A DNA stretch of 64,000 bases from an archaeon. GTDB lineage: Archaea; Nanobdellota; Nanobdellia; Woesearchaeales; SM23-78. The stretch covers positions 134,155 through 198,154 of the forward strand of contig JAZDMG010000007.1 of NCBI GenBank assembly GCA_043801165.1. The letters are read 5' to 3'. Both the position numbers and the translations under genes were made by a program. This document shows, one piece after another, positions 9,195 through 25,998 of this stretch (positions are counted from its first letter, which is position 1; each line of letters starts with the position of its first letter). The notes beneath the pieces were generated by a model, which worked only from the letters and a program-made list of their open reading frames with translations, was not told the origin of the DNA and searched no databases.

Positions 9195-9289
9195 TGACTA
9201 TTTCTAGGTTGGACAGGCAGTCGTAAACTATATAAATAACCCATTTGTCTAGTCCGATAGTATAAGTTCATGCTAAGAGGGTGATTTCA

Positions 9290-11920
9290 ATGGCAAAGAA
9301 GAAATTCGTCTATTATTTCTCAGAAGGAGATAAGTCAATGAAAGAATTGCTTGGCGGCAAAGGCGCTAATCTTGCTGAGATGACCAAGCTGGGGATTCCT
9401 GTCCCTCCGGGATTTACCATCACAACTGAAAGCTGCGCCTATTACAGCAAGGAGAAGAAATGGCCTGCTGAGCTCGAGGGAGAGATCAAGAAGAGCATCG
9501 AGAGGCTTGAGAAGGAGATGAAGGCAGCCTTTGATGACAAGAAGAACCCATTGATGGTCTCTGTCAGGAGCGGTGCTGCTTCTTCGATGCCCGGGATGAT
9601 GGACACGATATTGAATCTAGGGATTAATGATTCTACTGTTCTTGTCATGGCTGAGAAGTCAGGCAATGAAAGATTCTCCTGGGATTCCTATAGGCGATTC
9701 ATACAGATGTTCGGAGACGTCGTAATGGGCGTTGAGCATAGGCTCTTCGAGGAAGTCATGGAGAACGCGAAGGAGACCAAGGGAGTCAAGTATGACACTG
9801 ACCTTGATGCCTCTGACATGAAAAAGATAGTTGAGAAGTATAAGGCTGTTGTGAAGAAGCATGCTGGCAAGGACTTCCCGCAAAAGCCATGGGATCAACT
9901 GAAATTGTCGATTAACGCTGTGTTCGACTCATGGAACAACGAACGAGCGATAACCTACAGGAAATTAAACCACATACAGGGATTATTGGGGACTGCTGTT
10001 AATATCCAGGCGATGGTCTTCGGAAACATGGGAGAGACGTCAGGCACAGGAGTATGCTTCTCAAGGAACCCGTCAACAGGAGAGAATGCTTTCTACGGAG
10101 AATACCTGATGAACGCCCAGGGAGAGGATGTTGTCGCAGGCATAAGGACGCCATTGCACATCAATGAGCTGAAGAAGAGCATGCCCAAGCAATACGCTGA
10201 GCTTGTCAAGATAAGGGATGACCTTGAGAAGCACTACAAGGACATGCAGGACATGGAGTTCACGATACAGGAAGGAAAGCTGTACATGCTGCAGACACGT
10301 AACGGAAAAAGGACTGCACAGGCAGCCGTCAAGATAGCAGTCGACATGGTAAAGGAGAAGCTCATCGACGAGAAGACAGCAATCCTTCGCGTCAACCCTG
10401 AACAGCTTGACCAATTATTGCACAAGACCATTGATCCTGTGGCCAGGAAAAAAGCAAAGCTGATAGCCAAAGGCCTGCCTGCATCGCCAGGAGCAGTAGT
10501 CGGAAGCATCGTGTTTAACGCTGAGAGAGCTGTTGAGCTCGCTGAACGCGGAGAGAAACTGGTGTTGGTAAGGACAGAGACAAGCCCAGAAGACATCAAG
10601 GGAATGAACGCAGCACAGGGAATACTGACTGCCCGCGGAGGAATGACTTCCCACGCAGCAGTTGTCGCCCGAGGAATGGGCAAATGCTGCGTAAGCGGAT
10701 GCAGCGAGATAAAGGTGAAAGAGGAAGAGAAGAAACTGCTGATCAGTGGAGTGATATACAATGAAGGAGACTTCCTGACACTTGACGGTTCAACTGGAGA
10801 AGTGTTTGAAGGAAAGATACCATTGGTCGATCCTTCACTTAGCGGAGACTTTGGTGTGCTTATGAAATGGGCTGACAGCTATAGAAAACTGAAAGTCAGG
10901 ACCAACGCAGACACACCGAACGATGCCCGCGTCGCAAGAGGATTCGGAGCAGAAGGAATTGGCCTTTGCAGGACTGAGCACATGTTCTTCGAGGGCGACA
11001 GGATAAAAGCAGTGCGAGAGATGATTGTTGCCTCTGACCTTGGCGGAAGAAGAATTGCCCTTGCTAAGCTATTGCCTATGCAGAGAGGAGACTTCATAGG
11101 GTTATTTACTGAGATGAAAGGATTGCCTGTCACCATCAGATTGCTTGACCCTCCTTTGCATGAATTTTTACCTCATGAAGAGGAAGACATCGTTGAGCTG
11201 GCTGCTGAGATGAAGATATCTGTTGAAAAGATAAAATCCAAGATCGAAGAGCTGCATGAGTTCAACCCAATGCTAGGACATCGAGGATGCAGGTTGGGGA
11301 TAATATTCCCTGAGATATCTGAGATGCAGGCAAGGGCCATCTTTGAAGCTGCTGCTGAAGTGAAGAAGAAAGGCATCGACGCCAAGCCAGAAGTAATGGT
11401 TCCTTTGGTCGGGATTGTCCGCGAGCTTAAATTGCAGAAGGACTTGATCATCAGAGTGGCTGAAGAAGTTATGAAAGAGAAGAAAGTCAAGATAGAATAT
11501 ACTATCGGGACGATGATAGAGGTGCCCAGGGCAGCCATCACTGCTGACGAGATAGCTACTGAAGCTGATTTCTTTTCTTTCGGGACCAATGACCTGACCC
11601 AGATGGGATTAGGGCTTTCTAGGGATGACGCTGGAAAGTTCCTTGGCAAATACGTTGACATGGGAATATATGCGCGTGACCCATTCCAAGCTTTGGACCA
11701 AGCTGGCGTTGGTGAGCTGATGAAGATAGCAGTGGCCAAGGGAAGGAAGGTAAAGCCTAAGCTGAAATGCGGAATATGCGGAGAGCACGGAGGAGAGCCA
11801 TCCTCGGTTGAGTTCTGCCATCGCATCGGACTGGATTATGTAAGCTGTTCACCTTACCGAGTGCCTATCGCACGGCTGGCTGCTGCTCATGCGGTGCTGA
11901 AAGAAGCCAAGAAGAAGTAG
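9290..11920 (+). CDS. ppdK: Pyruvate, phosphate dikinase
   Basis: [25 protein letters not shown] (phospho-His loop), the C-terminal PEP-utilising TIM-barrel motif [11 protein letters not shown] and [12 protein letters not shown] 9290 is preferred over GTG 9281. Confidence 0.95.
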
Positions 11921-11955
11921 AGCATCTTGTTAAAATTATTTATTTTTCTGGTTTT

Positions 11956-11998
11956 ACAGGGAATTTGAGACTGATTACTATGAGACTGAATCAAATTC
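11956..11998 (+). repeat. Hairpin repeat family, copy M
   Basis: acaggGAATTTGA-(22 nt)-TCAAATTC. It lies between the convergent ends of ppdK and the RHH gene, and its 3' arm overlaps the last codons of 11978..12214. Confidence 0.7.
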
Positions 11999-12214
11999 TT
12001 TTCGCATGGATTGCTCTATCCTTGCGCTCATGTTATAGCCTTTCTCCCTGCATAGCTTCTGGAATCTCGAAGCCACAGCCTTGTCAACTGTGAAGTTCAT
12101 CCTGGTCTTGGTCCTGATCTTCTTGGTCTTCTCGAACTCCATCAAAGTCTCGAACATGGTCTTGTCGTTCTTGGCTATATCTTTCGCTATCCTAATGAAC
12201 TTGCTTGATTGCAT
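11978..12214 (-). CDS. RHH-type antitoxin partner of Doc
   Basis: 78 aa. The C-terminal MNFTVDKAVASRFQKLCREKGYNMSARIEQSMRKE fits strand-helix-helix. It overlaps the Doc gene by 23 nt. Confidence 0.6.
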   Translation of the reverse strand: MQSSKFIRIAKDIAKNDKTMFETLMEFEKTKKIRTKTRMNFTVDKAVASRFQKLCREKGYNMSARIEQSMRKEFDSVS

Positions 12215-12542
12215 CCTTGATCAACTCCTCTATCCTGTTTATGCTTGTTATGTTCTTGAGGATTATGCTCTTTATCAGCTTGACTATCCGGTCGTCATAG
12301 GTCTTGCATCCCTCATACTCGGCGTAGGCTTTTATCAGCAACGCGGTGGTCCTCTTGTTGCCTTCCTCAAAGACATGGTCTAATAGTATAGCCCTTGTGA
12401 GCCAGGCCAATGCCTTGGTCCAGTTCTCGGTCTTCTTGGCATAGCCTAGTGCGAACTCAAGGCTTGCCTCGTTGTGAAGCGTTCCTGTGTCGAACTCCTG
12501 GTTCAGGCATACGATATCCTTCTTTGAAAGCACAAATCTCAT
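12192..12542 (-). CDS. Fic/Doc family toxin
   Basis: HVFEEGNKRTTALL matches the Fic/Doc motif H.F.(D/E)GN.R. Confidence 0.8.
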   Translation of the reverse strand: MRFVLSKKDIVCLNQEFDTGTLHNEASLEFALGYAKKTENWTKALAWLTRAILLDHVFEEGNKRTTALLIKAYAEYEGCKTYDDRIVKLIKSIILKNITSINRIEELIKDAIKQVH

Positions 12543-12547
12543 TTTAA

Positions 12548-12575
12548 ATACACATTTGTGTGTATAAATGTGTAT
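12548..12575. promoter_or_regulatory. Operator-like repeats in the Doc operon promoter
   Basis: ATACACA (12548-12554) and TGTGTAT (12559-12565) form an inverted repeat. A direct copy TGTGTAT sits at 12569-12575, interleaved with A/T boxes. Confidence 0.35.
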
Positions 12576-12633
12576 TGATATTTAAATGTTATTGATTTTC
12601 CGAGACGATGTCTCGGAATTGTTGGATTACACC

Positions 12634-12668
12634 TATTTAAATAGGCTGCGCCGAGCTGTCCAGTGAGC
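12634..12668 (+). promoter_or_regulatory. Conserved TATA-linked core module, copy A
   Basis: tatttaaataggctgcgccgagctgtccagtgagc. Confidence 0.6.
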
Positions 12669-12769
12669 ATATGCCTTATCAGGGGATCTTATGGATGGCA
12701 AATACATTTATAAGCAGATACAGGCTCTCAGGATCATAAACAGTGTAATGATGTTTATGCAGGTGCAAC

Positions 12770-13185: not shown

Positions 13186-13227
13186 CCAGGGAATTTGAAT
13201 TGAGTTCTTACGAAGCGCGTCAAATTC
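13186..13227 (+). repeat. Hairpin repeat family, copy L
   Basis: ccaggGAATTTGA-(21 nt)-TCAAATTC, between convergent gene ends. Confidence 0.7.
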
Positions 13228-13230
13228 AGA

Positions 13231-13455
13231 TCAAAACTTCTTTCCAGTCTCGGACTTTATCTTTTTATTGAAGTCCTCGACGTCCTGCTTCGTGAGCTTG
13301 CTCTTCTCCAGAAGCTCTTTTTTATTTCGTCCTAATTCTATGAATAGGAGCTCTGGCGCCAAAGGCTCAATGCTTTCTGAGAACAATAGCTCTGCAGACT
13401 TTCCTCTTGCTAGGAGCGCTGCGAACAATACATTGGCATCGACGACCACTTTCAT
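13231..13455 (-). CDS. Truncated PIN-like toxin (74 aa)
   Basis: MKVVVDANVLFAALL is a PIN N-terminal acidic motif. The ORF stops well short of a full PIN domain. The upstream gene abuts it as TGA-ATG. Confidence 0.5.
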   Translation of the reverse strand: MKVVVDANVLFAALLARGKSAELLFSESIEPLAPELLFIELGRNKKELLEKSKLTKQDVEDFNKKIKSETGKKF

Positions 13456-13695
13456 TCATTTCAGACCTGGAAATTTCTTCTTGTATTGCCTGTGCATAGA
13501 AGAAGAGAGCTTGTCGGCCATCTTTTTTGCGTCTGCTTCAGTCAATTTGCTCTTAGACACTATTGACTTGAACATGGAAAGCGCCGTGATCTTCTCCCGT
13601 ATCGCCTCCCTTGCTACAGCAGACCAATTTATGTATTCCAACTCATCCATCTCCTTCTTCAAATCCTCAGGCACTGACAACGTTATTGTCGGCAT
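13456..13695 (-). CDS. Putative antitoxin
   Basis: 79 aa. MPTITLSVPEDLKKEMDEL...WSAVAREAIREKI is RHH/VapB-like. It lies directly upstream of the PIN-like ORF. Confidence 0.55.
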   Translation of the reverse strand: MPTITLSVPEDLKKEMDELEYINWSAVAREAIREKITALSMFKSIVSKSKLTEADAKKMADKLSSSMHRQYKKKFPGLK

Positions 13696-13786
13696 AGTCT
13701 TACCTCCGCATTCAAATATTTAAAACTGTGTAAACAGCGTAAATATTTAAATGTTTTGGCTCGATAATAATTACTGATAAGCTTAG

Positions 13787-13837
13787 CTTAAATAGGCTGC
13801 GTCAGGCCGTCCAGTGAGACCTGTGGTCATTTAGGGG
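13787..13837 (+). promoter_or_regulatory. Conserved TATA-linked module, copy B (long form, followed by a collapsed hairpin remnant)
   Basis: cttaaataggctgcgtcaggccgtccagtgagacctgtggtcatttagggg, followed by gaattgtcggaag, which matches the hairpin flanks with the hairpin interior missing. Confidence 0.6.
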
Positions 13838-13923
13838 AATTGTCGGAAGAATTTCGGAATCAAGATGGTCTTTGCGAAAATCGTTGGCCTGATTATATGA
13901 AGATGCTCTCTTATCTATGATGC

Positions 13924-14337
13924 ATGACCCGATACTATATCGATGCCTGCGTCTGGAGAGACTACTTCGAGGATAGGCGTGACAATCTCAGGCCATTGGG
14001 AGAATGGGCATTCCAGCTGCTGAGGAAGATAGTCGATGAAGAGGATGTTGTTGTTATCAGCGATAACCTGCTCAACGAGTTCAGGAAATATTATGATGAG
14101 GAAAAGATCATCAGGATGCTCAGCATAATTCCGGAAGAGCTAATCCTCAGGGTGAATGATGAAAGCCGGCAGCTGCTAGAAGCCAGGGAGCTGAGCAAGA
14201 AGTTCAGCATACACCGGTCAGATGCGTTGCATCTGGCCCTGGCATTGCTTAATGATGCGGTGCTAGTGACTAGAGATGCTCATTTCAAGGAGCTGAAGAA
14301 TGAGTATGATATCTGTGCGCCGGAAGAACTAATCTAA
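13924..14337 (+). CDS. PIN-domain toxin (VapC-like)
   Basis: MTRYYIDACVWRDYFED... with late-domain acidic residues (SDALHLALA, TRDAHF). Paralogue of 25976..26401. Confidence 0.75.
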   Translation: MTRYYIDACVWRDYFEDRRDNLRPLGEWAFQLLRKIVDEEDVVVISDNLLNEFRKYYDEEKIIRMLSIIPEELILRVNDESRQLLEARELSKKFSIHRSDALHLALALLNDAVLVTRDAHFKELKNEYDICAPEELI

Positions 14338-14592
14338 TTTGACCCCTAACCTTTTGGCTGTCTCGTTAAAGACCATCTCTCCGACTTCTTCCTCACTGAG
14401 CTTGCATTTGCTCTTCAAAGTGCCCTTTGCCGCGGCAAGCTTTGCGATGATCTCATCCTTTTCCAAACGGGAGAGCCTTGACCTTATGGCGTCCCTTATG
14501 AACTCGGTGCGAGTGCTGAAATTATGCTTCTTTAAGACTGAGTCGATGTTCTTTAGCATCTGCTCATCAAGCTTCAGGGAGATAACTTCCAT
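14329..14592 (-). CDS. CopG/RHH-family protein (antitoxin-like), convergent with the PIN gene
   Basis: MEVISLKLDEQMLKNIDSVLKKHNFSTRTEFIRDAIRSRL. ATG 14592 is preferred over the track start 14613. Paralogue of 25717..25998. Confidence 0.7.
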   Translation of the reverse strand: MEVISLKLDEQMLKNIDSVLKKHNFSTRTEFIRDAIRSRLSRLEKDEIIAKLAAAKGTLKSKCKLSEEEVGEMVFNETAKRLGVKLD

Positions 14593-14593
14593 G

Positions 14594-14620
14594 GTAATAC
14601 TTAGTATATACAAAGTAATA
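14594..14620 (-). promoter_or_regulatory. Operator-like TATTAC repeats
   Basis: gtaata occurs at 14594-14599 and 14615-14620 (21-nt spacing) flanking the palindrome gtatatac, between TATA-like tttaaatat and the ATG. Confidence 0.35.
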
Positions 14621-14667
14621 TTTAAAGGTTGCGGCGGGGAAGACGGAAGGATTGCGTACCGAGAATC

Positions 14668-15426
14668 CTACAATTTCATCCTGTTGAAAGCCCAGGTCCC
14701 TACCGCTATCAGCACTAGGTCAAAGCCGAGGATGATTAATAAGTTTGAGATGAATGACATTGATGATGCGTGGATTATTATGCTTCTAAGGCCATCGACT
14801 GCATAGGTGGCTGGGTTTATGTGTGTGAGGATCTGCATCCAGTGGGGAAGCTTGTCCAATGGATAAAGAGCTCCTGACAACAGGAATAATGGGTATACTG
14901 CGAAGCTTGCCACCAGGCCGAATCCTTCTGGGCTCTCCATGAAAGAGCCGATTATTAATCCAAGGCTGACAAGGCCAATCGCTAATACGAATAGCATTAC
15001 TATTGTCAATAGGAAGCTGGCTACTGTGAACGGTATGCCAAGGAATATGCCTATCACCATGAGGATTCCTGCTTGGACTAAAGAGTCTGTCATGCAGCCG
15101 AGGACTTTTCCGAAAAAGATTGTGGTTCTTGAGAGAGGAGTGACCAGCACTCCTTTGAGGAAGTCGACTTTCTTATCCCAGACAAGATAGGCTCCGTTGA
15201 ACAATGAGCTGAAGATTATGGTCATGGCAAGGAAGCCTGGGAATATGAAATATTCATAGTTGCCTGGCATGGTGGTGATAGATCCTACTCCTTTGCCGAA
15301 GATGAAGTACCAGAACAGCGGGAGGAATAGGGCTGAAATGATCCTGCTTTTCTCTCTTAGGAATACCTTTATCTCCCTGTACCATATGGCGTATATTCCC
15401 TTTGCGATCTTTCTTGCTTTGCTCAT
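14668..15426 (-). CDS. ABC-2 type transporter permease
   Basis: 252 aa with six hydrophobic segments. It overlaps the upstream ATPase gene by 4 nt. Confidence 0.8.
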   Translation of the reverse strand: MSKARKIAKGIYAIWYREIKVFLREKSRIISALFLPLFWYFIFGKGVGSITTMPGNYEYFIFPGFLAMTIIFSSLFNGAYLVWDKKVDFLKGVLVTPLSRTTIFFGKVLGCMTDSLVQAGILMVIGIFLGIPFTVASFLLTIVMLFVLAIGLVSLGLIIGSFMESPEGFGLVASFAVYPLFLLSGALYPLDKLPHWMQILTHINPATYAVDGLRSIIIHASSMSFISNLLIILGFDLVLIAVGTWAFNRMKL

Positions 15427-16388
15427 TTTCCTGCGTTGGTATATGTCCTTAACTGCTCTATCAAGCCGCCTTCCTGCTCCCTTATCTCATGGCCTGTGTA
15501 TTTCAAGAAGACGTCGTTGAGGTCTGGAGAATGGATGTCAACTGAATCCACCTCACCTGCTACTTGTAATAGCTTTTGAAGGTTCTTCGCTGAATTTTCC
15601 ACTGTTAGCTGTAAAGAGTTCTCTGACTTAATGATCTTTTTTACGAATGGTAATGATTTCAATTGGTCTATCCTGAGATTTTTTCCTTTGAGGATGATTA
15701 CGTCTCCCTTCATGGCTTTCTTTAGGTTCTCAGGAGAGTCCAAGGCGATGATTTTTCCATGGTCGATTATGGCTATCCTGTCGCACAAGTTTTCTGCCTC
15801 TTCCATGTAATGGGTTGTCAATATTATCGTCATGTTCATGGTCTTTGCCAATAGCTCAATGTATTTCCAGATGCGATTTCTTGTTTGAGGGTCTAATCCT
15901 AGGGTTGGCTCGTCTAGGAAGAGGATTTCTGGCTGGTGCAATAGTCCTCTTGCTATCTCCATCCTGCGCCTCATACCGCCTGAATACTTCTTGACTATAT
16001 CGTTCTTCCTTGGCTTGAGGTCGACTAGCTCTAAGACTTCGTCTATCTTCTTGTCTATGAGCTTTAACGGGATGTCATACATCAATGCGTGGAGCTTAAG
16101 ATTCTCGTAGCCGGTTAGCAATTCATCTGAACTAGGGTCCTGGAAGACCATACCGACAGACTCACGGACCTTGGCAGGGTCTTTGGTGACGTCGAAGTTG
16201 TTTACTGAGGCTTTGCCTGAAGTTGGCTTCAAGAGAGTTGAGAGCATCATCAAGGTTGTTGTCTTTCCAGCTCCGTTAGGGCCCAGAAGACCGAAGATCT
16301 CGCCCTTCTTGATGCTGAAGCTGATCTTATTCACAGCTGTTAATTTATCGTACTTCTTAGTGAGATTAACGATACGGATAGCGTCCAT
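15423..16388 (-). CDS. ABC transporter ATP-binding protein
   Basis: Walker A GPNGAGKTT, signature SGGMRRR, Walker B ILFLDEP. ATG 16388 (MDAIRIVNL) is preferred, because the track start 16457 runs into repeat copy D. Confidence 0.9.
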   Translation of the reverse strand: MDAIRIVNLTKKYDKLTAVNKISFSIKKGEIFGLLGPNGAGKTTTLMMLSTLLKPTSGKASVNNFDVTKDPAKVRESVGMVFQDPSSDELLTGYENLKLHALMYDIPLKLIDKKIDEVLELVDLKPRKNDIVKKYSGGMRRRMEIARGLLHQPEILFLDEPTLGLDPQTRNRIWKYIELLAKTMNMTIILTTHYMEEAENLCDRIAIIDHGKIIALDSPENLKKAMKGDVIILKGKNLRIDQLKSLPFVKKIIKSENSLQLTVENSAKNLQKLLQVAGEVDSVDIHSPDLNDVFLKYTGHEIREQEGGLIEQLRTYTNAGK

Positions 16389-16443
16389 TGAGCTGAGAAA
16401 GAACGAAGGGGTTTTTAAAGGTATTGAAGCTGAAATCAGTTGA

Positions 16444-16487
16444 CAGGGCTTTCGCACATCAGCTCTTACGAGGAAGAAGGCGAAAGC
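16444..16487 (+). repeat. Hairpin repeat family, copy D
   Basis: caggGCTTTCGC-(24 nt)-GCGAAAGC. Confidence 0.7.
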
Positions 16488-16499
16488 TGTAGGATTAGA

Positions 16500-17530: not shown

Positions 17531-17581
17531 CTTAAATAGGCTGCGCCAGGCTGACTAGTGAGACCTGTGGTTATTTACGGG
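17531..17581 (+). promoter_or_regulatory. Conserved TATA-linked module, copy C (long form)
   Basis: cttaaataggctgcgccaggctgactagtgagacctgtggttatttacggg. Confidence 0.6.
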
Positions 17582-17643
17582 ACTTAGGGAAGACCGAAGC
17601 CACAGCGAAGATCGCAGTGGCGATGGCTAACTGAACCTTTCGG

Positions 17644-17688
17644 CAGGGCTTTCGCAGTTGATTCTCACGAAGAGGGCGAAAGCGGAAG
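17644..17688 (+). repeat. Hairpin repeat family, copy C
   Basis: caggGCTTTCGC-(20 nt)-GCGAAAGCggaag, 62 nt downstream of module copy C. Confidence 0.7.
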
Positions 17689-17764
17689 GATTCACAGATT
17701 CTTGGATATTATTCCGAAAAATCCTTGGCCGGTTATATTAATGAGCTTCTGCCCGCAGTTCTTT

Positions 17765-18358: not shown

Positions 18359-18925
18359 ATGATGGGTCCCCTGCTGAAGATATTAAGGTTCTTTATCGAG
18401 AATAAAGGACAGGCCAGCATCAACGCGTTGGCTGGAAAGCTAGGGATGAACTACAGGATAGCCTATTATGGGGTGAAAGAGCTTGAGAAAGAAGGGTTGA
18501 TCGCTGTCAAAAGGCTTGGGAACTCAAACCAATGCAGCCTAAGCTACGGGTTCAACGACAAGGTCTTGCTGGTTGAGAATATGAGGAAAGAAGAATTATT
18601 GAAGAATACTGACATAAGCATAATCAATGACCAGCTGGAAGATGTCGAAAATCCGCTCTTCATATGCCTGGTGTTCGGATCCTATGCTTCTTCTAAGCAG
18701 AAGAAGAATTCTGACATAGACATCTGCGTGATAGCAGAAGAGAAAACTTCGGAAGAAGTGAAAAGAGCCATAAGAGGCCATCCTGTCAAGACGCACATAC
18801 TGGCTTTCACGCCGCGAGAGTTCAAGGCGATGATGAAAACAACAGAAGAAAACGTAGGAAAAGAGATCAAAAGGATGAATGTGATACTCAACGGAACAGA
18901 AGAATACTACCGGATGAACAGGTGA
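18359..18925 (+). CDS. wHTH-fused minimal nucleotidyltransferase (MNT), partner of HEPN
   Basis: LVFGSYASSKQKKNSDIDICV is the GS-x(n)-DxD nucleotidyltransferase motif. The N-terminal part is winged-helix-like. Confidence 0.7.
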   Translation: MMGPLLKILRFFIENKGQASINALAGKLGMNYRIAYYGVKELEKEGLIAVKRLGNSNQCSLSYGFNDKVLLVENMRKEELLKNTDISIINDQLEDVENPLFICLVFGSYASSKQKKNSDIDICVIAEEKTSEEVKRAIRGHPVKTHILAFTPREFKAMMKTTEENVGKEIKRMNVILNGTEEYYRMNR

Positions 18926-19820
18926 GGAGGAGGAGCGAGCCTTCAATCAATCCCAACAGCGATACAGGCTCGGAGGAAGCCCATAGCGGTCCAAAGGGTG
19001 CGTCCAGAATCTCTTGAAAAAATAAAATTATGTTGTGGGCTATTGCTCTGCAATAGGCCTCTGCGCGCTGCGCAGAGATCTTGTGGCTAGCGATGCTAGC
19101 CCCAAATTTAGTTTTTATCGCTTTGAAAACAGATTCAACCATTTCTCTGCGATAATATCTTCTATGATGAACATATTTTTGGTTTTCTCTACGTAAAGTA
19201 TGATTTTTATTTCTACTTCTGCCTTTATTTCGCATGGGAATGCAAGCAGTTATTCCTTTGCTTGCGCAATATTCATGCAACCAATTAGCGTCATATCCTT
19301 TATCTGCCACAAGCCATTTGGCTTGTGGACTTCGTTTGAGCAAGTATTTTGCATCTCGAATATCGTGAGCTTTCTTTGCTCTTAGACGCAAAGCTAAGAT
19401 TTTCTTGGTTTTGGTATCGACGACAATGCTCAGTTTAAGGGGTATTTCCACCGGATAAGGTCTGTCGATGCGTCGATAATAGTATGGGCTGGGCAAAGAA
19501 CGACTCATGCCAGTGCCATCAATTGCCAAGATGTAGCTTTTTTTGTCTGCAGTAGCAGACAAAACTCTTTGCCAAAGATTTAACGGTATGCGATTCATAG
19601 CATACCACAAACCAGATTTGCTGGCGCACTTAACTCCAAGACCGCGAAGCATTCTAGTTATCCGACGATAACCTTGCTTGCATTCTTGTTTTAGAACAAG
19701 TGCTAAAAGATGATGTTTTAGCTCATATTTCTTTGGTCCAAAATGGTGTAGCCATCTTGGCATGCCTAAGCGTCTCAGGAGACGCTTAAATTTATTAATT
19801 AGTCTTTCTTCTTTAGCCAT
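18888..19820 (-). CDS. DDE transposase
   Basis: AIDGTG, VADKGYD and REMVESVFKAIK fit a DDE triad pattern. The reading frame has no stop inside the IS and runs through the left IR into flanking DNA. Confidence 0.8.
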   Translation of the reverse strand: MAKEERLINKFKRLLRRLGMPRWLHHFGPKKYELKHHLLALVLKQECKQGYRRITRMLRGLGVKCASKSGLWYAMNRIPLNLWQRVLSATADKKSYILAIDGTGMSRSLPSPYYYRRIDRPYPVEIPLKLSIVVDTKTKKILALRLRAKKAHDIRDAKYLLKRSPQAKWLVADKGYDANWLHEYCASKGITACIPMRNKGRSRNKNHTLRRENQKYVHHRRYYRREMVESVFKAIKTKFGASIASHKISAQRAEAYCRAIAHNIILFFQEILDAPFGPLWASSEPVSLLGLIEGSLLLLTCSSGSILLFR

Positions 19821-19902
19821 TGGGCGAACACCTCAGATGTTTGCCCCCCAGCTAGCCTAACGGCTAGCTGGCTTATTAAATTTTTAGATTCTGGACGCAC
19901 CC
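18996..19902 (-). mobile_element. IS element (IS4/IS5-like DDE transposase) with 17-bp terminal inverted repeats and 9-bp target duplication
   Basis: GGGTGCGTCCAGAATCT at 18996-19012 is the reverse complement of 19886-19902. CGGTCCAAA flanks both ends (18987-18995 and 19903-19911). Confidence 0.85.
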
Positions 19903-19947
19903 CGGTCCAAAGGAAAATTTATAAACTCTTTAACTTTAACACAATGC

Positions 19948-20439
19948 GTGGGATTAAATTCAATCATCAAATTTAAGAAAAAAACACCGGATTGGTGGAT
20001 TTTAACTCTATTGCCTCTTCTTCTCATACTTTCTGTTTCTGTGATAAGTTATTTTACTAATGGGATTTACACCGCATTATCCGCGTTTATCGAACAGATC
20101 TTAACGTTTAGTTTTGTCTTAAGTAGCACAGATCTGGCATTACGTTCAAAAATAGTAAAAGAAGATAAGCGTTCGAGATTACCTCCAATAATACCATTGA
20201 TTCTGGCTTTTATAATATTTATTATTTATGTTGCGTTAATTGATACTATTACGGCTCGATTTTCAAAAGACGTTATTTACTGTGTATTCGTATTAATAAC
20301 AATTATTATTGGTTATGCATCAATTATCTTGTATAACAACAATCCTTACAGTGATCCTTTTGAGCCGAATCCTGTAGAAGAGAAAATTGGTCAAGAAGAA
20401 GCAGACATGAAAAGATTTGAATTTGGAGATAAACAATGA
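19948..20439 (+). CDS. Small four-helix membrane protein, unknown function
   Basis: 163 aa, GTG start, four hydrophobic segments. Its stop overlaps the start of the next gene (ATGA at 20436-20439). Confidence 0.55.
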   Translation: MGLNSIIKFKKKTPDWWILTLLPLLLILSVSVISYFTNGIYTALSAFIEQILTFSFVLSSTDLALRSKIVKEDKRSRLPPIIPLILAFIIFIIYVALIDTITARFSKDVIYCVFVLITIIIGYASIILYNNNPYSDPFEPNPVEEKIGQEEADMKRFEFGDKQ

Positions 20440-21548
20440 ATTCGAATGAAGAGAAGTGGTTAGAAATATCTGTAATGGAGATTGAACAGCCTATTGGGAA
20501 ATTCTATATCGGAAAAGCTTTGGCCAACGATGTTACCAGAATCTGTTCTGCTGATAAAAGACAAAAAGTTATAAATGACGAGCTAGATGCTTACATAGGA
20601 ATTCAAAGACAACTAAATGAGGCTAGAAAAAAAGAAATTGAAAAATTTGTTTTAACCGAAGATGCTAGTTTTCCTAGTTCTGTTGTTCTTGCTGTTAAAG
20701 AAGGGGCATACGAATACGACAATGAGAGAAAAATTATTAAGATTAAAGAAGATAGAAAATCATGCAACATACTCGATGGTCAACACAGATTATCCGGATT
20801 TCCTGCAAACACCGAGAATAAATTTGAGCTTATCCTAACTATCTTTCCGGAACTTGATTTAGAATATCAAAGTTATCTTTTCTCAGTTATTAATACTCGC
20901 AGCACTAGAATTAATCCATCTTTAGCTCAAGATTTATATGCTTTCTCAAAAGTCGACACGCCTGAACGATTAGCTCACAGAATCGCTAGAGTTTTTAATA
21001 AAACTGAAGAAAATCCTTGGTTCATGAGATTGAAACTTCTTGGTATGAGCGACGGTAATAAAAATGCTATTTTATCACAAAGTACATTTACTAAATATAT
21101 TGTTGAATTGATATCAAGAAAAGAGGACACATATCAAATCAGAGATGTTCTGAAGAGAAACAACAATAAGAGAAAAGCTCTTAAAGACTTCAAATCTCAT
21201 GGTCCGCTTTGGGATAAATACATTAACGGTGAAGATAAATATATTTATGATTTATTAAAATGTTATTTTATTGCGGCAAAGCAAAAATTCCAAGATAACT
21301 GGGGAGATCATAACAGCATCATTACAAAAACAACAGGTTACGCTGCATTAATGAATGTATTGAAATATTTATTGAAAAGGGAATTGCCAAACGAACCCGA
21401 TGTTGGTTATTTCAAAAAGTATTTTGATAATATCCCCGACCCGATTATTGAGAGATTAGACAGTGAGCATTATACGCCGGGTCAAGTAGGAGAAAGTGAT
21501 CTTCAAAAAGATATTTTAAAAGGAATGGGATTTGAGAAAGGTAATTGA
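20436..21548 (+). CDS. DGQHR-domain (DndB-like, ParB/Srx-fold) protein
   Basis: NILDGQHRLSGF, with D of DGQHR at codon 114 (nt 20775), and the upstream GIQRQLNEARKKEI motif. Confidence 0.8.
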   Translation: MNSNEEKWLEISVMEIEQPIGKFYIGKALANDVTRICSADKRQKVINDELDAYIGIQRQLNEARKKEIEKFVLTEDASFPSSVVLAVKEGAYEYDNERKIIKIKEDRKSCNILDGQHRLSGFPANTENKFELILTIFPELDLEYQSYLFSVINTRSTRINPSLAQDLYAFSKVDTPERLAHRIARVFNKTEENPWFMRLKLLGMSDGNKNAILSQSTFTKYIVELISRKEDTYQIRDVLKRNNNKRKALKDFKSHGPLWDKYINGEDKYIYDLLKCYFIAAKQKFQDNWGDHNSIITKTTGYAALMNVLKYLLKRELPNEPDVGYFKKYFDNIPDPIIERLDSEHYTPGQVGESDLQKDILKGMGFEKGN

Positions 21549-21581
21549 TTTTAATCTCTTTTCTGATTAGTTGAAAGGAGC

Positions 21582-22364
21582 TTATTTTATATGCGCGTTC
21601 ATCTCTTCAAATCTTTGTTTAGTTAAGTTTAGGAATTCTTTTTCTTTCTCGATTCCAATATATTTTCTTCCTAGCGAGCACGCAACAACGCCAGTCGTTC
21701 CCGAGCCATTAAAGGGGTCTAGAATATAGTCTCCTTCATTAGAGCTGGATGCGATTATTCTTTTCAACAATTCAATCGGCTTCTGAGTTGGATGTGCTCC
21801 GCATTTCTTCTCGCTCATAGGAGTTAAAGGAATATGCCAAATGCTTCGCATTTGCTTTCCTTTCGGGCTTATCTTATCATCCCATTCTTTCATTTCTTTG
21901 TAGTGGAAGATGTGCTTCGCGTCCTTTTCTTTCCTGGCCCAGATTATCGTTTCGTGAGTATGAGCAAAGCAACGACAAGCGAGATTTGGAGGAGCATTGG
22001 GTTTATACCAAGTAATATCATTCAGAATGTGAAAACCCAACGATTGTAAAGCATAGCCCACCTGATAAATGTTATGCGGCGTTCCAGAAATCCAGATCGT
22101 TCCGTTCGGTTTCAAAACACGTCGACACTCCTTTATCCAGCTATAGGTAAATTCAAAATCCTTCTCGAATCCTTTTGATTTATCCCAATCTCCTTTATCT
22201 ACGCAAACCACTTTGCCAGCTTTGCAAGAAATGCCACCGTTTGAGAGGTTATAAGGAGGGTCGGCGAATATTGTGGTTATTGATTCACTTTTTATTTTTG
22301 GAAGCAGCTCTAAACAATCGCCATGCAAGAGAGTAATGTCTTCATCCTTATGATAAACAGTCAT
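21582..22364 (-). CDS. Beta-class DNA methyltransferase, probably N6-adenine
   Basis: N-terminal IFADPPYNL catalytic motif and C-terminal ILDPFNGSGTTGV SAM motif, in beta-class order. Confidence 0.85.
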   Translation of the reverse strand: MTVYHKDEDITLLHGDCLELLPKIKSESITTIFADPPYNLSNGGISCKAGKVVCVDKGDWDKSKGFEKDFEFTYSWIKECRRVLKPNGTIWISGTPHNIYQVGYALQSLGFHILNDITWYKPNAPPNLACRCFAHTHETIIWARKEKDAKHIFHYKEMKEWDDKISPKGKQMRSIWHIPLTPMSEKKCGAHPTQKPIELLKRIIASSSNEGDYILDPFNGSGTTGVVACSLGRKYIGIEKEKEFLNLTKQRFEEMNAHIK

Positions 22365-22385
22365 TCTCTATCAATTCATGACCTT

Positions 22386-22419
22386 GTTTATATTCTTTGC
22401 GTCGAAATGTCCAGTGCTA
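22386..22419 (+). promoter_or_regulatory. Conserved TATA-linked core module (short copy)
   Basis: gtttatattctttgcgtcgaaatgtccagtgcta. Confidence 0.6.
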
Positions 22420-22489
22420 TTATACAAAAAACGGAATATTCTCGTAAAAAGCGAAAATATTATTAACTTTGAGGCATAACATTTTATTA

Positions 22490-23125
22490 ATGACTGAAAA
22501 CTACACAGAAGGCATGAACTATCAAAAGATGCTGGATGTAATAAAGAAGTTAGAATTCGATAAAAAGAAAACCATCTATAAAGAGGTAAATGTTGAAGTG
22601 TATCTAATCAGACCTTCAGAATTGCCCAAACGATTAAAAAACAAATATGATGCTAGTAAAAATTTCCAAATCTGGTTAAAAGAAGATGAAAGAGAGTTCA
22701 AACCGAACCATTTAAGATTAATGATTGATTTGAATCTTAGAGCAAGATCAAGACCTGACTTGAAAAAAGACCTTCTGAAAGCATTCGATAACATATTCTA
22801 CGGAAATGACCCTCTTAAAGAAGTTCAGAAATTATCCTTGGAGAAATTCGAGCATTATCTGAATTCGATCAAAGTAATCGCTGTACTGATGCAGCTCTTT
22901 TTGATTGAACAGGATTTCAATTACATAAAAGACAGTAAATTTGAACCCAAAACGCTATTTTTTCAAGGATGGATTAGAGAATTCATAGACAGTCCAAAAG
23001 AAATCGATAATATGTGCATGAGCGTTTGCAATGGACAACCGCCAAAGATACAATATACTGATAAAGAAAATGGAAAACATAAGAAATACGAAAAAGATCT
23101 AAAACCATTGTGGTATTTGAATTAA
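22490..23125 (+). CDS. Hypothetical protein between two methyltransferase genes (candidate restriction endonuclease; unproven)
   Basis: 211 aa from ATG 22490. An A/T box at 22456-22466 lies 24 nt upstream. No nuclease motif could be assigned with confidence; the call is positional only. Confidence 0.5.
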   Translation: MTENYTEGMNYQKMLDVIKKLEFDKKKTIYKEVNVEVYLIRPSELPKRLKNKYDASKNFQIWLKEDEREFKPNHLRLMIDLNLRARSRPDLKKDLLKAFDNIFYGNDPLKEVQKLSLEKFEHYLNSIKVIAVLMQLFLIEQDFNYIKDSKFEPKTLFFQGWIREFIDSPKEIDNMCMSVCNGQPPKIQYTDKENGKHKKYEKDLKPLWYLN

Positions 23126-23955
23126 TAATTAGTTACTACAACCTCGTTGATTTCTCCACGACCTTCTGCTTTAGAATTAATCATTCTTCTTGCTTTGACA
23201 GTGTGAATTTTAAAATCAGCGTAAATTTCTTTTATTAGTTTTGTATCGCTGTTGCTTTCCATACAGAAGCATCCTTTTTCTGATAGTTTTCTGAAGATTT
23301 CAGCCAGTTTTTTCTGGTCTTTTTCTACAAAATTGTCTTTTGTATATGTCGTGAAGCTCGGTTTCGCATCCAAAGGATGATAAGGCGGGTCAAAATATAC
23401 AAAATCCCCTTCTTTAGCCAAATCAGCAATCTTTTCAAAAGACATTACCTTGATCGTTACGTTTTTTAGAAGTTCAGCGATTCTTCTTAGTTTATCTTCT
23501 TGGACGACATCCGGATTCTTGTAGTCACCCATAGGAACGTTAAATTGATTCTTAGAATTTACTCTATACAATCCATTAAAACAGGTTCGATTTAGATAAA
23601 TAAATCTGGCGGCTCTTTCCAATAAAGGCAAATCGTTTGGGCTGACACTTCTTATTTCATAATAATATTCTTTTCCGTCAGCCAAATGATATTCTTTGTG
23701 TTGCTTTAGCTCTACGATAAGCCGTTCTACATCGGTTTTGATAACATTGAACGCATTAATAAGCTCCTCGTTAGTATCTGAGAGAAAAACCTCTTTTGGT
23801 TTTAAATTTTGAATAACGAAGAAGGCCACAGCTCCGCTTCCTACAAACGGCTCAAAGTATCTATTAAATTTCTTTGGAAAGAGAGGCTTAAACTGCTCGA
23901 TAAGCTGCTGCTTCCCACCAGCCCACTTTACAAAACGCGGAATATCCTCACCCAT
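23122..23955 (-). CDS. Dam-type (alpha-class, D12) N6-adenine DNA methyltransferase
   Basis: The N-terminal WAGGK...EPFVGSGAV SAM motif precedes YFDPPY. Confidence 0.85.
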   Translation of the reverse strand: MGEDIPRFVKWAGGKQQLIEQFKPLFPKKFNRYFEPFVGSGAVAFFVIQNLKPKEVFLSDTNEELINAFNVIKTDVERLIVELKQHKEYHLADGKEYYYEIRSVSPNDLPLLERAARFIYLNRTCFNGLYRVNSKNQFNVPMGDYKNPDVVQEDKLRRIAELLKNVTIKVMSFEKIADLAKEGDFVYFDPPYHPLDAKPSFTTYTKDNFVEKDQKKLAEIFRKLSEKGCFCMESNSDTKLIKEIYADFKIHTVKARRMINSKAEGRGEINEVVVTNY

Positions 23956-24017: not shown

Positions 24018-24066
24018 CCCGAATTCGCCCTTCTGTCTCGTAAGATTCTTTTTGGCGAATTCCCTG
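24018..24066 (-). repeat. Hairpin repeat family, copy E
   Basis: Top strand cccGAATTCGCC-(24 nt)-GGCGAATTCcctg. Confidence 0.7.
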
Positions 24067-24080: not shown

Positions 24081-24132
24081 GCCGTAAATTCTCACAGGTC
24101 GCACTGGACATCTATGCGTAGCCTATTTAAAT
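24081..24132 (-). promoter_or_regulatory. Conserved TATA-linked module, copy E (long form)
   Basis: The reverse complement reads atttaaataggctacgcatagatgtccagtgcgacctgtgagaatttacggc. Confidence 0.6.
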
Positions 24133-24433: not shown

Positions 24434-25252
24434 ATGATTCGTAAGTCTTTACTTTATAAGAGCAGCGTGGAGTACGCTGACTTCTGCATCAATCATGTTG
24501 AAGGCTGTTCTCACGGGTGCACTTTTCCTTGTTATGCTATGATGATGGCCAAGCGCTTTGGCAAGATCAAGTCTTATTCTGACTGGATTAAGCCGAAAGT
24601 GGTCGAGAATGCTCTTGAGCTTCTTGATAAGGAGATCCCTAAGTACAAGGACCAGATAAAGTTTGTCCATCTCTGCTTCTCAACCGATCCTTTCATGTAT
24701 GGCCATGATGAGGTCAAGGATATGACTTTGAAGATCATTGAGCGCCTGAACAAGGACAATATAAGATGCACTGTGCTCACTAAGGGGGTCTATCCGAAAG
24801 AATTGGCAGATACAAAGAAGTATGGTCTGAATAATGAGTACGGCATCACCTTGGTCTCTCTTAATCAGGATTTTAAGCGCAGCTTTGAGCCTTTCGCAGC
24901 TTCTTACGAGCAAAGGATAAAATCGTTGAAGCGTTTGAGCGATGTCGGTCTTAAGACTTGGGTCAGCATGGAGCCTTATCCTACTCCGAACCTTGTCAAT
25001 CAAAATCTGAAGAAGATTCTTGAAAAAATCTCATTTGTCGACAAGATAGTCTTTGGAAAGCTCAATTATAACGTCAAGACTAGCTTGTTCAAGGACAACG
25101 CTACTTTCTATGAAGGCTGCGCGCAGACAGTGATTGATTTCTGCAAGAAAAAAGGAATAGATTATCATATCAAGTTCGGAACTCAAACCAGATTCGATAA
25201 GGCAACAGCTTCTTTGTTCAAGAAGAAGTGCGAAATAATAGTTCAAGTGTAA
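24434..25252 (+). CDS. Radical-SAM-like protein (SplB/COG1533-like) with an atypical Cys spacing
   Basis: EGCSHGCTFPCYA gives C-x3-C-x3-C, read directly from the DNA at 24503-24529. ATG 24434 is preceded by gagggagagg. Confidence 0.6.
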   Translation: MIRKSLLYKSSVEYADFCINHVEGCSHGCTFPCYAMMMAKRFGKIKSYSDWIKPKVVENALELLDKEIPKYKDQIKFVHLCFSTDPFMYGHDEVKDMTLKIIERLNKDNIRCTVLTKGVYPKELADTKKYGLNNEYGITLVSLNQDFKRSFEPFAASYEQRIKSLKRLSDVGLKTWVSMEPYPTPNLVNQNLKKILEKISFVDKIVFGKLNYNVKTSLFKDNATFYEGCAQTVIDFCKKKGIDYHIKFGTQTRFDKATASLFKKKCEIIVQV

Positions 25253-25277
25253 GCGTCAGCTTCTTATTAAGTCATCG

Positions 25278-25322
25278 CCCGAATCCGCCCTTCGGGTTTG
25301 ATTGCGCCTGGCGGATTCCCTG
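25278..25322 (-). repeat. Hairpin repeat family, copy F
   Basis: cccGAATCCGCC-(20 nt)-GGCGGATTCcctg. Confidence 0.7.
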
Positions 25323-25630: not shown

Positions 25631-25690
25631 ACTTTTTTTCTGGAATTTATTTTCGCAAATATTCCGCCTTCCTGACAGCAAACTATTTAA

Positions 25691-25716
25691 ATTACATTGT
25701 ATTACATAAGATTACA
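25691..25716 (+). promoter_or_regulatory. Three ATTACA repeats in 10-bp phase between TATA and ATG
   Basis: attaca occurs at 25691-25696, 25701-25706 and 25711-25716. Confidence 0.45.
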
Positions 25717-25998
25717 ATGGATATCATCACCATCAGGTTCCAGGAAGACATATTGAAGAAGATAGACCAAAGCATCGTAAACCATAACTTCAACTCCAGG
25801 ACTGAATTCATAAGGGAGGCTGTCAGGGACAAATTAGCAGGCCTCAGCAAGGAAGAGGCGATAGACGCTTTCCTGAGCCTGAGAGGAAAGCTCAAGGGCA
25901 GGACCAAGCCTGAAGATGATGAAAAGCTCAAATGGGCGGCAAGCAGGGAGCTGATGGCAGAATTGGATAAGCGTTTCAAGAGACCTTCTCAGGCCTAG
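25717..25998 (+). CDS. CopG/RHH-family protein (antitoxin-like)
   Basis: MDIITIRFQEDILKKIDQSIVNHNFNSRTEFIREAVRDKL. Paralogue of 14329..14592. Confidence 0.7.
   Translation: MDIITIRFQEDILKKIDQSIVNHNFNSRTEFIREAVRDKLAGLSKEEAIDAFLSLRGKLKGRTKPEDDEKLKWAASRELMAELDKRFKRPSQA

Follow-up and report, generated by a model that had tools for sequence, protein, structure and literature searches.

The 64-kb stretch of DNA analysed here, referred to as the window, comes from a Woesearchaeote, a DPANN archaeon. Between 11.9 and 30.3 kb it contains a variable island of toxin-antitoxin, restriction-modification, nuclease, Bro-N and radical-SAM genes, bordered on one side by a pyruvate-phosphate dikinase (PPDK) gene and on the other by glucokinase and tRNA-U5-methyltransferase genes. 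The PPDK homologues point to Woesearchaeota. Relatives with 79–80% PPDK identity have the same site without the island, and in further relatives the site is occupied by different cassettes. Leaderless genes are the norm in the window, the TATA-to-ATG distance peaking at 27–31 nt. The window contains no tRNA gene, so the repeats described below are not tRNA-derived att sites.

The earlier note on this DNA had described four sites at which a conserved core and a hairpin are joined into a composite unit, and all four were recovered at the same positions:

Copy B, 13787–13852, plus strand: core 13787–13836, then a collapsed hairpin, GGGGAATTG joined to TCGGAAG
Copy C, plus strand: core 17531–17580, spacer of ~63 nt, hairpin 17644–17688
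Copy E, minus strand: core 24131–24082, spacer of 15 nt, hairpin 24066–24018
Copy J, minus strand: core 29737–29685, spacer of 17 nt, hairpin 29667–29623

In copies C, E and J the order is TATA, core, ACCTGTGGTTATTTACGG, a spacer of 15–63 nt and the hairpin. The reading of copy B as a collapsed version was borne out and the form is recurrent, a core with the collapsed hairpin being present also in the relative L003 (84.7% identity, 72 nt), from which the 0.64-kb segment holding copy B (13228–13865) is missing. A remnant resembling the collapsed hairpin was also seen in copy C, directly after the part of the core called coreB and before the full hairpin. The spacer of this copy (17581–17643, plus strand) begins with this collapsed-hairpin or purine-rich remnant (GGGACTTAGGGAAGACCGAAG) and continues with an unrelated small stem.

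Both parts of the composite are genuine repeat modules. An 18-mer was found five times at ≤3 mismatches compared with no occurrence in 100 shuffles, the core profile matches had E-values of 1e-14 to 1e-17 and the matches to the hairpin covariance model had E-values of 1e-9 to 1e-13. Cores and hairpins were also found in six related contigs from several lineages, and the order of core then hairpin was seen again in L002, L003, L052 and the X3 strain, contrary to what the earlier note would have taken as a refutation. The copies exceed the four composites: the window has 8 cores and 10 hairpins, and the covariance model gave 7 hairpins in L002 and 3 in L003. The modules are separable: four cores (A, G, K and L) have no adjacent hairpin in the window, seven of its hairpins have no adjacent core, and where both are present the spacer between them ranges from 13 to ~80 nt or entire genes may intervene. 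Folding the whole units as RNA gave no common structure apart from the hairpin, with z-scores of −0.6 to −3.

The cores other than that of copy B, and a second promoter module termed P2, are as follows:

4597–4629, plus strand: short core K, TATA-N13-TGTCCAGTGCTA; TATA 30 nt from the ATG (4574) of a divergent LAGLIDADG-like gene
12636–12667, plus strand: core A, TATA-N13-TGTCCAGTG without coreB; right end of a 0.76-kb Fic/antitoxin segment (~11922–12685) absent from L003
17531–17580, plus strand: core C, TATA at 17532–17539, BRE-like CG, box TGACTAGTG, then coreB ACCTGTGGTTATTTACGG; TATA 31–32 nt from the ATG (17507) of a divergent YhcG-type nuclease gene
22387–22419, plus strand: short core L; TATA 30 nt from the ATG (22364) of a divergent DNA methyltransferase gene
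24082–24131, minus strand: core E; TATA 30 nt from the ATG (24154) of a divergent operon of a 67-aa gene and a radical-SAM gene
26488–26537, minus strand: core G; TATA 30 nt from the ATG (26560) of a divergent Bro-N gene
29685–29737, minus strand: core J, variant box TGTCCTATG; TATA ~37 nt from the ATG (29765) of a divergent pair of 96- and 97-aa genes
17711–17740, plus strand: P2, a TTCCGAAAAATCCTTGGCC box and TATA2 (TTATATTAA), the own promoter of a HEPN-like/nucleotidyltransferase pair (ATG ~17766); repeated at 13867–13898 and more weakly at 29564–29590 (minus strand)

The core combines a BRE/TATA element with 50–75 nt of upstream sequence that is conserved and includes a box at constant distance (TATA-N13-TGTCCAGTG), to which this lineage adds CCTGTG-N3-ATTTACG and a purine-rich tail. 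The N13 spacing is invariant among the cores and TGTCCAGTG is conserved across lineages. Among 24 motif copies from 7 loci, the core TATA lies 27–33 nt from the divergent ATG in 12 and 34–45 nt from it in 5 more. The core is also kept in the remaining 7 copies, although there the distance to the divergent gene exceeds 45 nt and that gene has its own TATA closer by. A BRE-like CG is conserved on the side of the core, 4–5 nt from the TATA, where the ordinary promoters of the window have their CG..A-rich stretch. An archaeal TATA is expected ~26–30 nt before the start of a leaderless gene, with the BRE just upstream of it fixing the direction. With the TATA at the leaderless spacing of the opposite gene and the BRE-like CG next to the core, transcription most likely starts in the direction of that gene and not into the core. 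The core would then be the BRE/TATA promoter of the leaderless gene across the TATA together with conserved upstream sequence. The Bro-N gene keeps its divergent core in the window, L002 and L052, and a pair of divergent genes in L055 has two cores between them that face each other, one per gene. Every same-strand gene that follows a core was read from the sequence to have its own TATA at −30. A promoter, as the earlier note had read into the composite, is really present in the core, and the modules are indeed tied to toxin-antitoxin and restriction-modification genes.

The conserved sequence of the core is most simply regarded as a shared upstream regulatory site for a putative regulator, and the fixed N13 spacing and cross-lineage conservation of TGTCCAGTG are compatible with such a protein at the box. 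The GvpE UAS of halophile gvp promoters is likewise a conserved sequence at a fixed distance upstream of BRE/TATA (PMC2241852). Archaeal UAS and bidirectional TATA promoters resemble the present case further in their compact divergent intergenic regions, where a symmetric TATA could yield a divergent by-product transcript (PMC2241852, PMC6640164). In contrast to these promoters, the same upstream sequence here serves many unrelated accessory genes, travels with them and extends over 50–75 nt.

Reading the composite the other way, the core TATA would fire rightward, maybe bidirectionally, to give a short non-coding RNA with its 5' end in coreB and the hairpin in its body, and this RNA would control toxin-antitoxin or restriction-modification genes nearby. 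Rightward transcription is predicted to start exactly behind the fixed-distance box, the conserved coreB would make up nucleotides +1 to +22 of the transcript, the hairpin structure is conserved with compensatory changes and two T-G wobbles lie on the small-RNA strand. The order core, hairpin, P2 and toxin-antitoxin gene recurs in L054, which belongs to another lineage. Bidirectional archaeal TATA boxes are known, with starts ~50 nt apart, and TBP binds symmetrically (PMC6640164). However, the BRE-like CG is on the wrong side of the TATA for rightward initiation, and relative to the opposite gene the TATA occupies the canonical −30 position. The distance to the hairpin is variable, neither coreB nor hairpin accompanies the short cores (K, L and those of L048 and L055), the small stem of coreB is broken in about half of the copies, and no oligo-T terminator was seen after the hairpin. 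The cores facing each other in L055 also argue against this reading. No Rfam family was matched, a gathering-threshold search of the window giving nothing and an E-value search of the island giving one chance match. A small-RNA gene is accordingly judged quite unlikely. The earlier note had interpreted the composite as a self-contained promoter with a short transcript; this part found no support in view of the TATA/BRE geometry, the genes' own TATAs, the spacer, the lack of oligo-T, the broken coreB stem and the independence of the modules, whereas the modules themselves, their order, the gene association and the promoter all stood. A short divergent by-product RNA from the symmetric archaeal TATA could still be made.

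The ten hairpins of the window are as follows:

11957–12002, plus strand: stem GAATTTGA; 38 nt past the PPDK stop codon, overlapping the last codons of a convergent antitoxin gene
13187–13231, plus strand: after a zinc-finger gene; orthologous to L003 13131; a window-specific segment begins at its 3' foot
16444–16492, plus strand: H1, at the 3' end of the YhcG gene and antisense to it; a window-specific ABC-transporter segment ends at or inside this hairpin, whose left half is mosaic
17644–17688, plus strand: hairpin C, CAGG, G-CTTTCGC stem, 20-nt loop, GCGAAAG-C, GGAAG; its left half matches an L003 hairpin located left of YhcG
24018–24066, minus strand: hairpin E, stem GAATTCGCC; followed by the own TATA of a Dam methylase gene
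25276–25322, minus strand: H2, directly past the radical-SAM stop codon and antisense to that gene
27476–27520, minus strand: H3, after a 60-nt TspO 3'-end fragment (27549–27608), facing the Bro-N stop codon
28456–28506, minus strand: H4, immediately past the TspO stop codon, in sense orientation
29623–29667, minus strand: hairpin J, stem GAATCCGCC; followed by the P2-like promoter of an antitoxin/ParE-RelE pair
50718–50763, minus strand: the sole window copy outside the island; past the NAPRTase stop codon, facing a convergent wHTH regulator gene

The hairpin is a stem-loop of 40–45 nt with a perfect stem of 8–9 bp and a loop of 18–24 nt. Its conserved parts are the loop (TCTKACGAGGAAGA or ...CGAAG) and the flanks (CAGG / CGGAAGAT), while the stem varies in sequence yet still pairs: 97.5% of cells are paired, 25 of them are compensatory and none of 500 shuffles was as good. 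Other lineages have the same loop on different stems, and the cross-lineage comparison gave 97.8% paired and 32 compensatory cells, with none of 500 shuffles as good. The stem classes are common to the group of the window, L002 and L003 and are different in L052, L054 and L055. The left and right halves of some hairpins have different nearest relatives, that is, they are mosaic. The L002 hairpin at 3320 has a single C-A mismatch and is more likely to be a chimera than to have suffered a point mutation, since its 3' flank also matches another hairpin class. The consensus of the kink-turn is G-A/A-G; by eye, the internal loop of the GAATCCGCC-class hairpins did not fit it.

In a purely transcriptional reading, the hairpin would be an archaeal counterpart of REP elements at 3' ends, serving between converging or back-to-back transcription units as an insulator, a weak terminator or a stabiliser of RNA. 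The core would be a promoter only, and the breakpoints described below would result from homologous recombination at dispersed repeats. Fourteen of 20 hairpins lie between a source of transcription and the 3' end of a convergent gene, and the radical-SAM, TspO, NAPRTase and zinc-finger genes have a hairpin directly past the stop codon; for the radical-SAM gene this holds in L002, L052 and L055 as well, making four lineages with the window. Many copies have AGAT after the hairpin, and in Haloferax both hairpins and a downstream AGATC motif give partial termination (PMC7237163). One large indel makes no use of the elements. On the other hand, the PPDK and zinc-finger genes already have an oligo-T terminator ahead of their hairpin, and three window hairpins lie between divergent promoters. 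Nine of the ten window hairpins are clustered in one 18-kb island rather than spread over gene ends, and the 22-kb housekeeping stretches of relatives have none. The copies of an array also lie on one strand regardless of gene orientation, as seen for all the hairpins of L002 and for the two co-oriented blocks of the window. A purely transcriptional role is therefore unlikely, though not negligible.

The arrangement of the modules and the differences between strains point to the boundaries of gene cassettes. The seven strong cores and seven hairpins of L002 alternate without exception, with a probability of ~6e-4 under random order. Three window-specific segments relative to L003 begin or end at a hairpin or core, and in three comparisons the homology between paralogous or orthologous copies ends where the core ends. 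Cassette content differs between strains that are 85–94% identical. In the X3 strain core G is followed by a hairpin 13 nt on, and an extra hairpin closes the J cassette. A recurring grammar of standard promoter end, gene or genes and structured boundary hairpin was found in at least five Woesearchaeal lineages. However, both ends of a 1955-bp strain-level indel lie in plain intergenic DNA without an element, and a truncated TspO fragment accompanies one hairpin, which indicates that illegitimate or homologous recombination is also at work in the island.

Our preferred interpretation, held with somewhat more belief than doubt, is that the composites are seams between neighbouring accessory-gene cassettes, at which a core abuts a boundary hairpin, and are not genes themselves. 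A typical cassette would consist of a core-promoter, its gene or genes and a hairpin at the far boundary, and a composite would result from direct contact between the promoter end of a cassette and a hairpin. The boundary repeats, the hairpin foremost, would probably be the places where recombination, whether site-specific or homologous, joins and separates cassettes.

The earlier note had also suggested a miniature mobile element, in which core and hairpin would transpose as a MITE-like unit and deliver a promoter. The repeats are modular, intergenic and promoter-bearing and there are presence/absence differences between strains. However, they have no terminal inverted repeats, and a search for target-site duplications at the strain-specific insertions was negative. 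The unit is never gained or lost alone, as the differing segments always include genes (window compared with L003 and with X3), core and hairpin are apart more often than together, and the core stays with its divergent gene across lineages, as for Bro-N. Transposition of such a unit is very improbable.

Cassettes separated by structured sites recall integrons. Archaeal integrons are known in Nanoarchaeota, a DPANN group in which they are mostly integrase-less attC clusters (CALINs) rich in toxin-antitoxin and restriction-modification cassettes (PMC9668308). The likeness lies in the small accessory cassettes, mainly toxin-antitoxin, restriction-modification and nuclease genes (PMC9668308), in the co-oriented hairpin sites between them with conserved structure and variable stem sequence, and in the fast turnover of cassettes between close strains at a fixed chromosomal location. 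However, no RYYYAAC...GTTRRRY stem pair exists anywhere in the island, a scan of 11.9–30.4 kb on both strands for R''/R' pairs 45–150 nt apart with paired ends giving 0 hits. The hairpins here are shorter, with perfect stems and no extrahelical bases where attC sites are imperfect, of 55–141 nt and variable in their central part, and the conserved sequence is in the loop and unpaired flanks, not at the base of the stem. Most cassettes have their own promoter module in place of a single Pc, the genes are found in either orientation with respect to the sites, and IntI was not found among the ORFs of the window, which covers 64 kb of a 237-kb contig. A canonical integron array or CALIN is highly improbable.

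The BIMEs built of REP units and the pneumococcal BOX elements are similarly modular and variably combined, with a covarying palindromic unit and conserved flanking bases; they favour the space between convergent genes and are known recombination hot spots. The present elements differ from them in their archaeal host, in that nine of the ten window copies cluster in one island where REP copies are spread genome-wide, and in that one module is a promoter. A canonical REP/BIME was rejected, as the head is CAGG and not of the GTAG type, the copies are single and co-oriented and not inverted doublets (REPINs) and the conserved loop is large at 18–24 nt. Within the window no RAYT (Y1 transposase) gene was found. 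The core shares only the 7-mer TCCAGTG with the origin recognition box (ORB), a dyad with a G-string that clusters around an AT-rich unwinding element beside orc1/cdc6. A replication-origin reading was set aside, there being no TCCAGTGGAAA dyad, no orc1/cdc6 gene in the window and kilobases between the copies. A viral origin of the repeats is likewise unsupported: among viral contigs 43 matches to a 16-mer were found, of which none fitted the core profile, and there were no hairpin matches. A scan of the genome contig collection with the core pattern gave a single chance match in a Clostridia MAG.

Several observations count against the interpretation of the composites as seams. With symmetric TBP binding, rightward initiation from the core TATA is possible, and 50–75 nt is long for an upstream site. 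Seven of the 24 cores are kept although the divergent gene is distant and has a nearer TATA. Pfam scans of the window ORFs, together with the fetched flanks, gave no integrase, Y1 transposase or other recombinase, and the ends of the 1955-bp indel are free of elements. A simple role at 3' ends makes no sense for hairpins C, E and J, which have divergent promoters on either side. The wobble evidence for a functional strand is thin, with two T-G pairs on the element strand compared with one C-A.

DPANN archaea have tiny genomes and are host-dependent, and to our knowledge it is largely unknown how they gain and shuffle their defence and toxin-antitoxin genes. As a speculation that we consider improbable but worth stating, DPANN archaea may have a cassette-exchange system of their own, integron-like but unrelated, with TATA-N13-TGTCCAGTG as the standard promoter end and a putative recombinase crossing over inside a non-attC hairpin by way of its loop and flanks, the mosaic halves being the scars. 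If the hairpin is a dedicated recombination site, the integron idea would have been invented a second time, independently. If the hairpin is regulatory only, this uncultured group would still gain its first conserved motif upstream of promoters, together with a conserved structured element. The motif and the structured element are directly usable to find accessory islands in metagenome-assembled genomes.

The core, a promoter-bearing repeat module (TATA, N13, conserved box, coreB), and the hairpin, a stem-loop repeat module of 40-45 nt, are real modules, above chance. An 18-mer that turned up in none of 100 shuffles occurred five times at <=3 mismatches, a core profile search of the window returned six long copies (E = 1e-14 to 1e-17) and two short copies, K (4597) and L (22387), and a hairpin covariance model found ten window copies (E = 1e-9 to 1e-13). 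The four sites at which an earlier note had seen both modules joined into composites were present where it put them, with the same parts.

Copy C: core 17531-17580, spacer about 63 nt, hairpin 17644-17688
Copy E, minus strand: core 24131-24082, spacer 15 nt, hairpin 24066-24018
Copy J, minus strand: core 29737-29685, spacer 17 nt, hairpin 29667-29623
Copy B: core 13787-13836, no spacer, collapsed hairpin form, GGGGAATTG|TCGGAAG

The composite form is the minority in the window, where four cores (A, G, K and L) stand without an adjoining hairpin and seven hairpins without an adjoining core.

One metagenome scan returned the contig L002, with shared genes 66-92% identical to the window and 7-9 cores and 7 hairpins within 10 kb on one strand only. 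In the relative L003, whose PPDK is 94% identical, two cores and three hairpins are present. Both modules, diverged in sequence, are present in L052, L054 and L055, loci of other Woesearchaeal lineages found via radical-SAM homologues. Neither core nor hairpin was found in L004, a 22-kb locus of a relative without the island at this site, and the locus L048 gave one short core only and no hairpin.

The TATA of window genes typically starts 27-31 nt ahead of the ATG, indicating that most are leaderless. From a core TATA to the ATG of the gene on the opposite side the distance is 30 nt (E, G, K, L), 31-32 nt (C) or about 37 nt (J). A motif search with TATA(8)-N13-TGTCCAGTG gave 24 copies at seven loci, half of them with a divergent ATG 27-33 nt off and five more with one at 34-45 nt. 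Beside the core TATA, conservation is confined to a CG facing the core, at the position where ordinary window promoters carry a CG..A-rich BRE. Since transcription in archaea takes its direction from the BRE, which sits upstream of TATA, the core promoter should fire away from the core. In agreement with this, same-strand genes downstream of cores all have their own TATA at about -30 or a Shine-Dalgarno leader, among them P2, the second promoter module (box plus TATA2), at 13892 and 17733, and TTTATTAT at 26431-26424 for a PIN gene. In L055 two cores lie face to face between divergent genes, and each is positioned at -30 relative to the gene it serves, which also agrees.

Judged from sequence, the core is thus a promoter plus conserved upstream sequence, namely a box at a fixed 13-nt distance, CCTGTG-N3-ATTTACG (window/L002/L003 lineage) and a purine-rich tail. 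The box TGTCCAGTG is invariant at five window sites:

4618-4626
12657-12665
22408-22416
24102-24110
26508-26516

The box resembles archaeal origin-recognition boxes in having the 7-mer TCCAGTG; an origin role was rejected, there being no dyad, G-string or orc1/cdc6 gene with these boxes in the window. A small stem in coreB, suggested by RNA folding, was also set aside, being disrupted in roughly half the copies. The genes served by cores (YhcG, Bro-N, RadC, radical-SAM, methyltransferase, a LAGLIDADG-like protein, toxin-antitoxin pairs and unknowns) are mutually unrelated, so the core is a portable module; the Bro-N gene retains its core in the window, L002 and L052. A 58-nt repeat in L054 (2229-2286, 3611-3668, 5912-5969) bears a P2-type box (CTTCCGAAAATC) and a TATA, precedes PIN and Fic toxin genes, and follows a hairpin once and a core once. 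Conservation across lineages thus extends to the second promoter module that copies B, C and J carry.

The predicted direction of the core promoter, away from the core, tells against the earlier suggestion that the composites are a small-RNA gene family, and no match to described RNA families (Rfam) was found. By analogy, the element strand, which reads core then hairpin, may have a role at the RNA level, since a symmetric archaeal TATA can yield divergent by-product RNA (PMC6640164) and a hairpin is capable of partial termination in Haloferax (PMC7237163).

The hairpin stem has 8-9 bp, with 97.5% of cells paired and 25 compensatory cells, a value reached in 0/500 shuffles; including other lineages (stems GCTTCCAC or GAGTTTGA) the figures are 97.8%, 32 and 0/500. 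Sequence conservation covers the two Gs that precede the stem, the loop towards its 3' side (..GARG; TCTKACGAGGAAGA in many copies) and the 3' flank CGGAAGAT. Hairpins of one array all lie on the same strand, and about two thirds are at a gene 3' end on one or both sides. A hairpin directly follows the radical-SAM stop codon in the window, L002, L052 and L055, and that of TspO in the window and L002. A plain terminator role is not the whole explanation, since three hairpins (C, E and J) are flanked by divergent promoters, and an oligo-T run already stands ahead of the hairpin that follows the PPDK gene and of that following the zinc-finger gene. Hairpin 11958 encodes in its loop and 3' arm the final seven codons and the stop (11978-12000) of a 78-aa antitoxin-like gene, so that a boundary repeat supplies part of a coding sequence.

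Window promoters are archaeal in type (TTTAAATA boxes), and the best named relatives of the PPDK protein (9281-11920) are Candidatus Woesearchaeota. By Pfam annotation, 11.9-30.3 kb is an accessory-gene island holding Fic/antitoxin, three PIN toxins with RHH or AbrB partners, ParE/RelE, a HEPN-like/nucleotidyltransferase pair, YhcG nuclease, Bro-N, a DUF5131-type radical-SAM protein, TspO, Dam and a second methyltransferase, DndB and an IS5-type transposase. The flanking PPDK and tRNA-U5 methyltransferase genes are neighbours in relatives with 79-80% identical PPDK and enclose different cassettes in others; by this comparison the interval is a hot spot for accessory genes.

Several further features were observed. 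The IS5-type DDE transposase (18888-19820) adjoins a low-GC block (34-35% vs about 46%), and 18888-23955 looks like a recent insertion splitting the element array into plus-strand and minus-strand halves. The block contains:

20436-21548: DndB-like gene
21582-22364: N4/N6 methyltransferase
22469-23125: unannotated 218-aa ORF, perhaps an endonuclease
23122-23955: Dam methylase

Two paralogous PIN genes (13924-14613, 25717-26437) each overlap a convergent RHH (CopG) gene tail to tail, as in L003 and unlike the usual co-directional antitoxin-toxin operon. The island ABC-2 transporter pair (14668-16457), missing in L003, has a paralogue at 44565-46205 among the housekeeping genes of the window, with a 104-nt stretch 70% identical (15718-15821 vs 45490-45593). 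The radical-SAM protein (24434-25252) has 70-78% identical relatives in many DPANN archaea and CPR/Patescibacteria bacteria, which suggests recent exchange across domains. An IS-like small element (35069-36176) has 44-nt imperfect inverted repeats, 75% complementary and 1020 nt apart, enclosing ORFs at 35127-35624 (InsA-type zinc ribbon) and 35681-36151. A second low-GC block (48000-50000, 35.5%) has two ORFs without Pfam matches (48148-48981, 48998-49570) and adjoins a double winged-helix regulator (49706-50668); the sole hairpin outside the island (50721-50760) is just past it.

Comparison with L003 as reference showed three extra segments in the window.

About 11922-12685: hairpin, Fic pair and core A
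13228-13865, beginning at the foot of hairpin 13188: toxin-antitoxin pair, core B and collapsed hairpin
About 14651-16440, reaching to hairpin H1 (16444..16492, plus strand): ABC transporter

Homology ends where the core ends for copies B and G against L002 and copy C against L003. Some hairpins are mosaics: that left of YhcG in L003 joins the left half of window hairpin C to the right half of H1, L003 13131 joins window 13188 (left) to 11958 (right), and L002 3320 has a GAATCCGCC-class left half with an E-class right arm and flank, which accounts for its sole arm mismatch. In the related strain in public sequencing run X3 a hairpin lies 13 nt after core G, giving a composite at the place taken in the window by a PIN gene, and an additional hairpin, lacking in the window, lies between 30332 and 30343 at the J cassette end. 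That strain also lacks window 25670-27624; this indel ends in ordinary intergenic DNA, so not all events use the elements. A 60-nt TspO 3'-end fragment (27549-27608 vs 28506-28565, 82% identical) is duplicated along with its hairpin, and fragment and hairpin recur in L002 (3346-3499) at another array position.

In L002 seven strong cores alternate strictly with seven hairpins, for which our own arithmetic gives a probability of about 6e-4 under random order. In gene orientation each unit runs core-promoter, gene(s), hairpin; a composite reading core then hairpin on the element strand would be the junction of two such units, and insertion there would pull the modules apart. Inserts of this kind include TspO, a gene of 65 aa, the zinc-finger gene and PIN with its own promoter.

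Integron arrays reported from Nanoarchaeota (PMC9668308), most of them lacking an integrase and their cassettes rich in TA/RM genes, resemble the island in cassette content and layout, but a scan of the island found no R''/R' sites, the hairpin anatomy differs and no IntI was found among the window ORFs. REP/BIME and BOX repeats are alike in modular make-up and preference for convergent gene ends, whereas the copies here are single, co-oriented and, within the window, largely island-bound, with no RAYT found in the window. The earlier note's other proposal, a miniature mobile element (MITE) delivering a promoter, fits repeated, intergenic, promoter-bearing elements, but these have no TIR or TSD and in the comparisons with L003 and X3 the core-hairpin unit never moves alone, so this proposal finds no support.

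No recombinase was seen in Pfam scans of the window ORFs, and cassettes may move by dedicated recombination at the hairpin or by ordinary recombination between dispersed repeats. On a narrow balance of probability, each composite marks a seam in a rapidly changing island of a DPANN archaeon, where an accessory cassette carrying its promoter meets a boundary hairpin.
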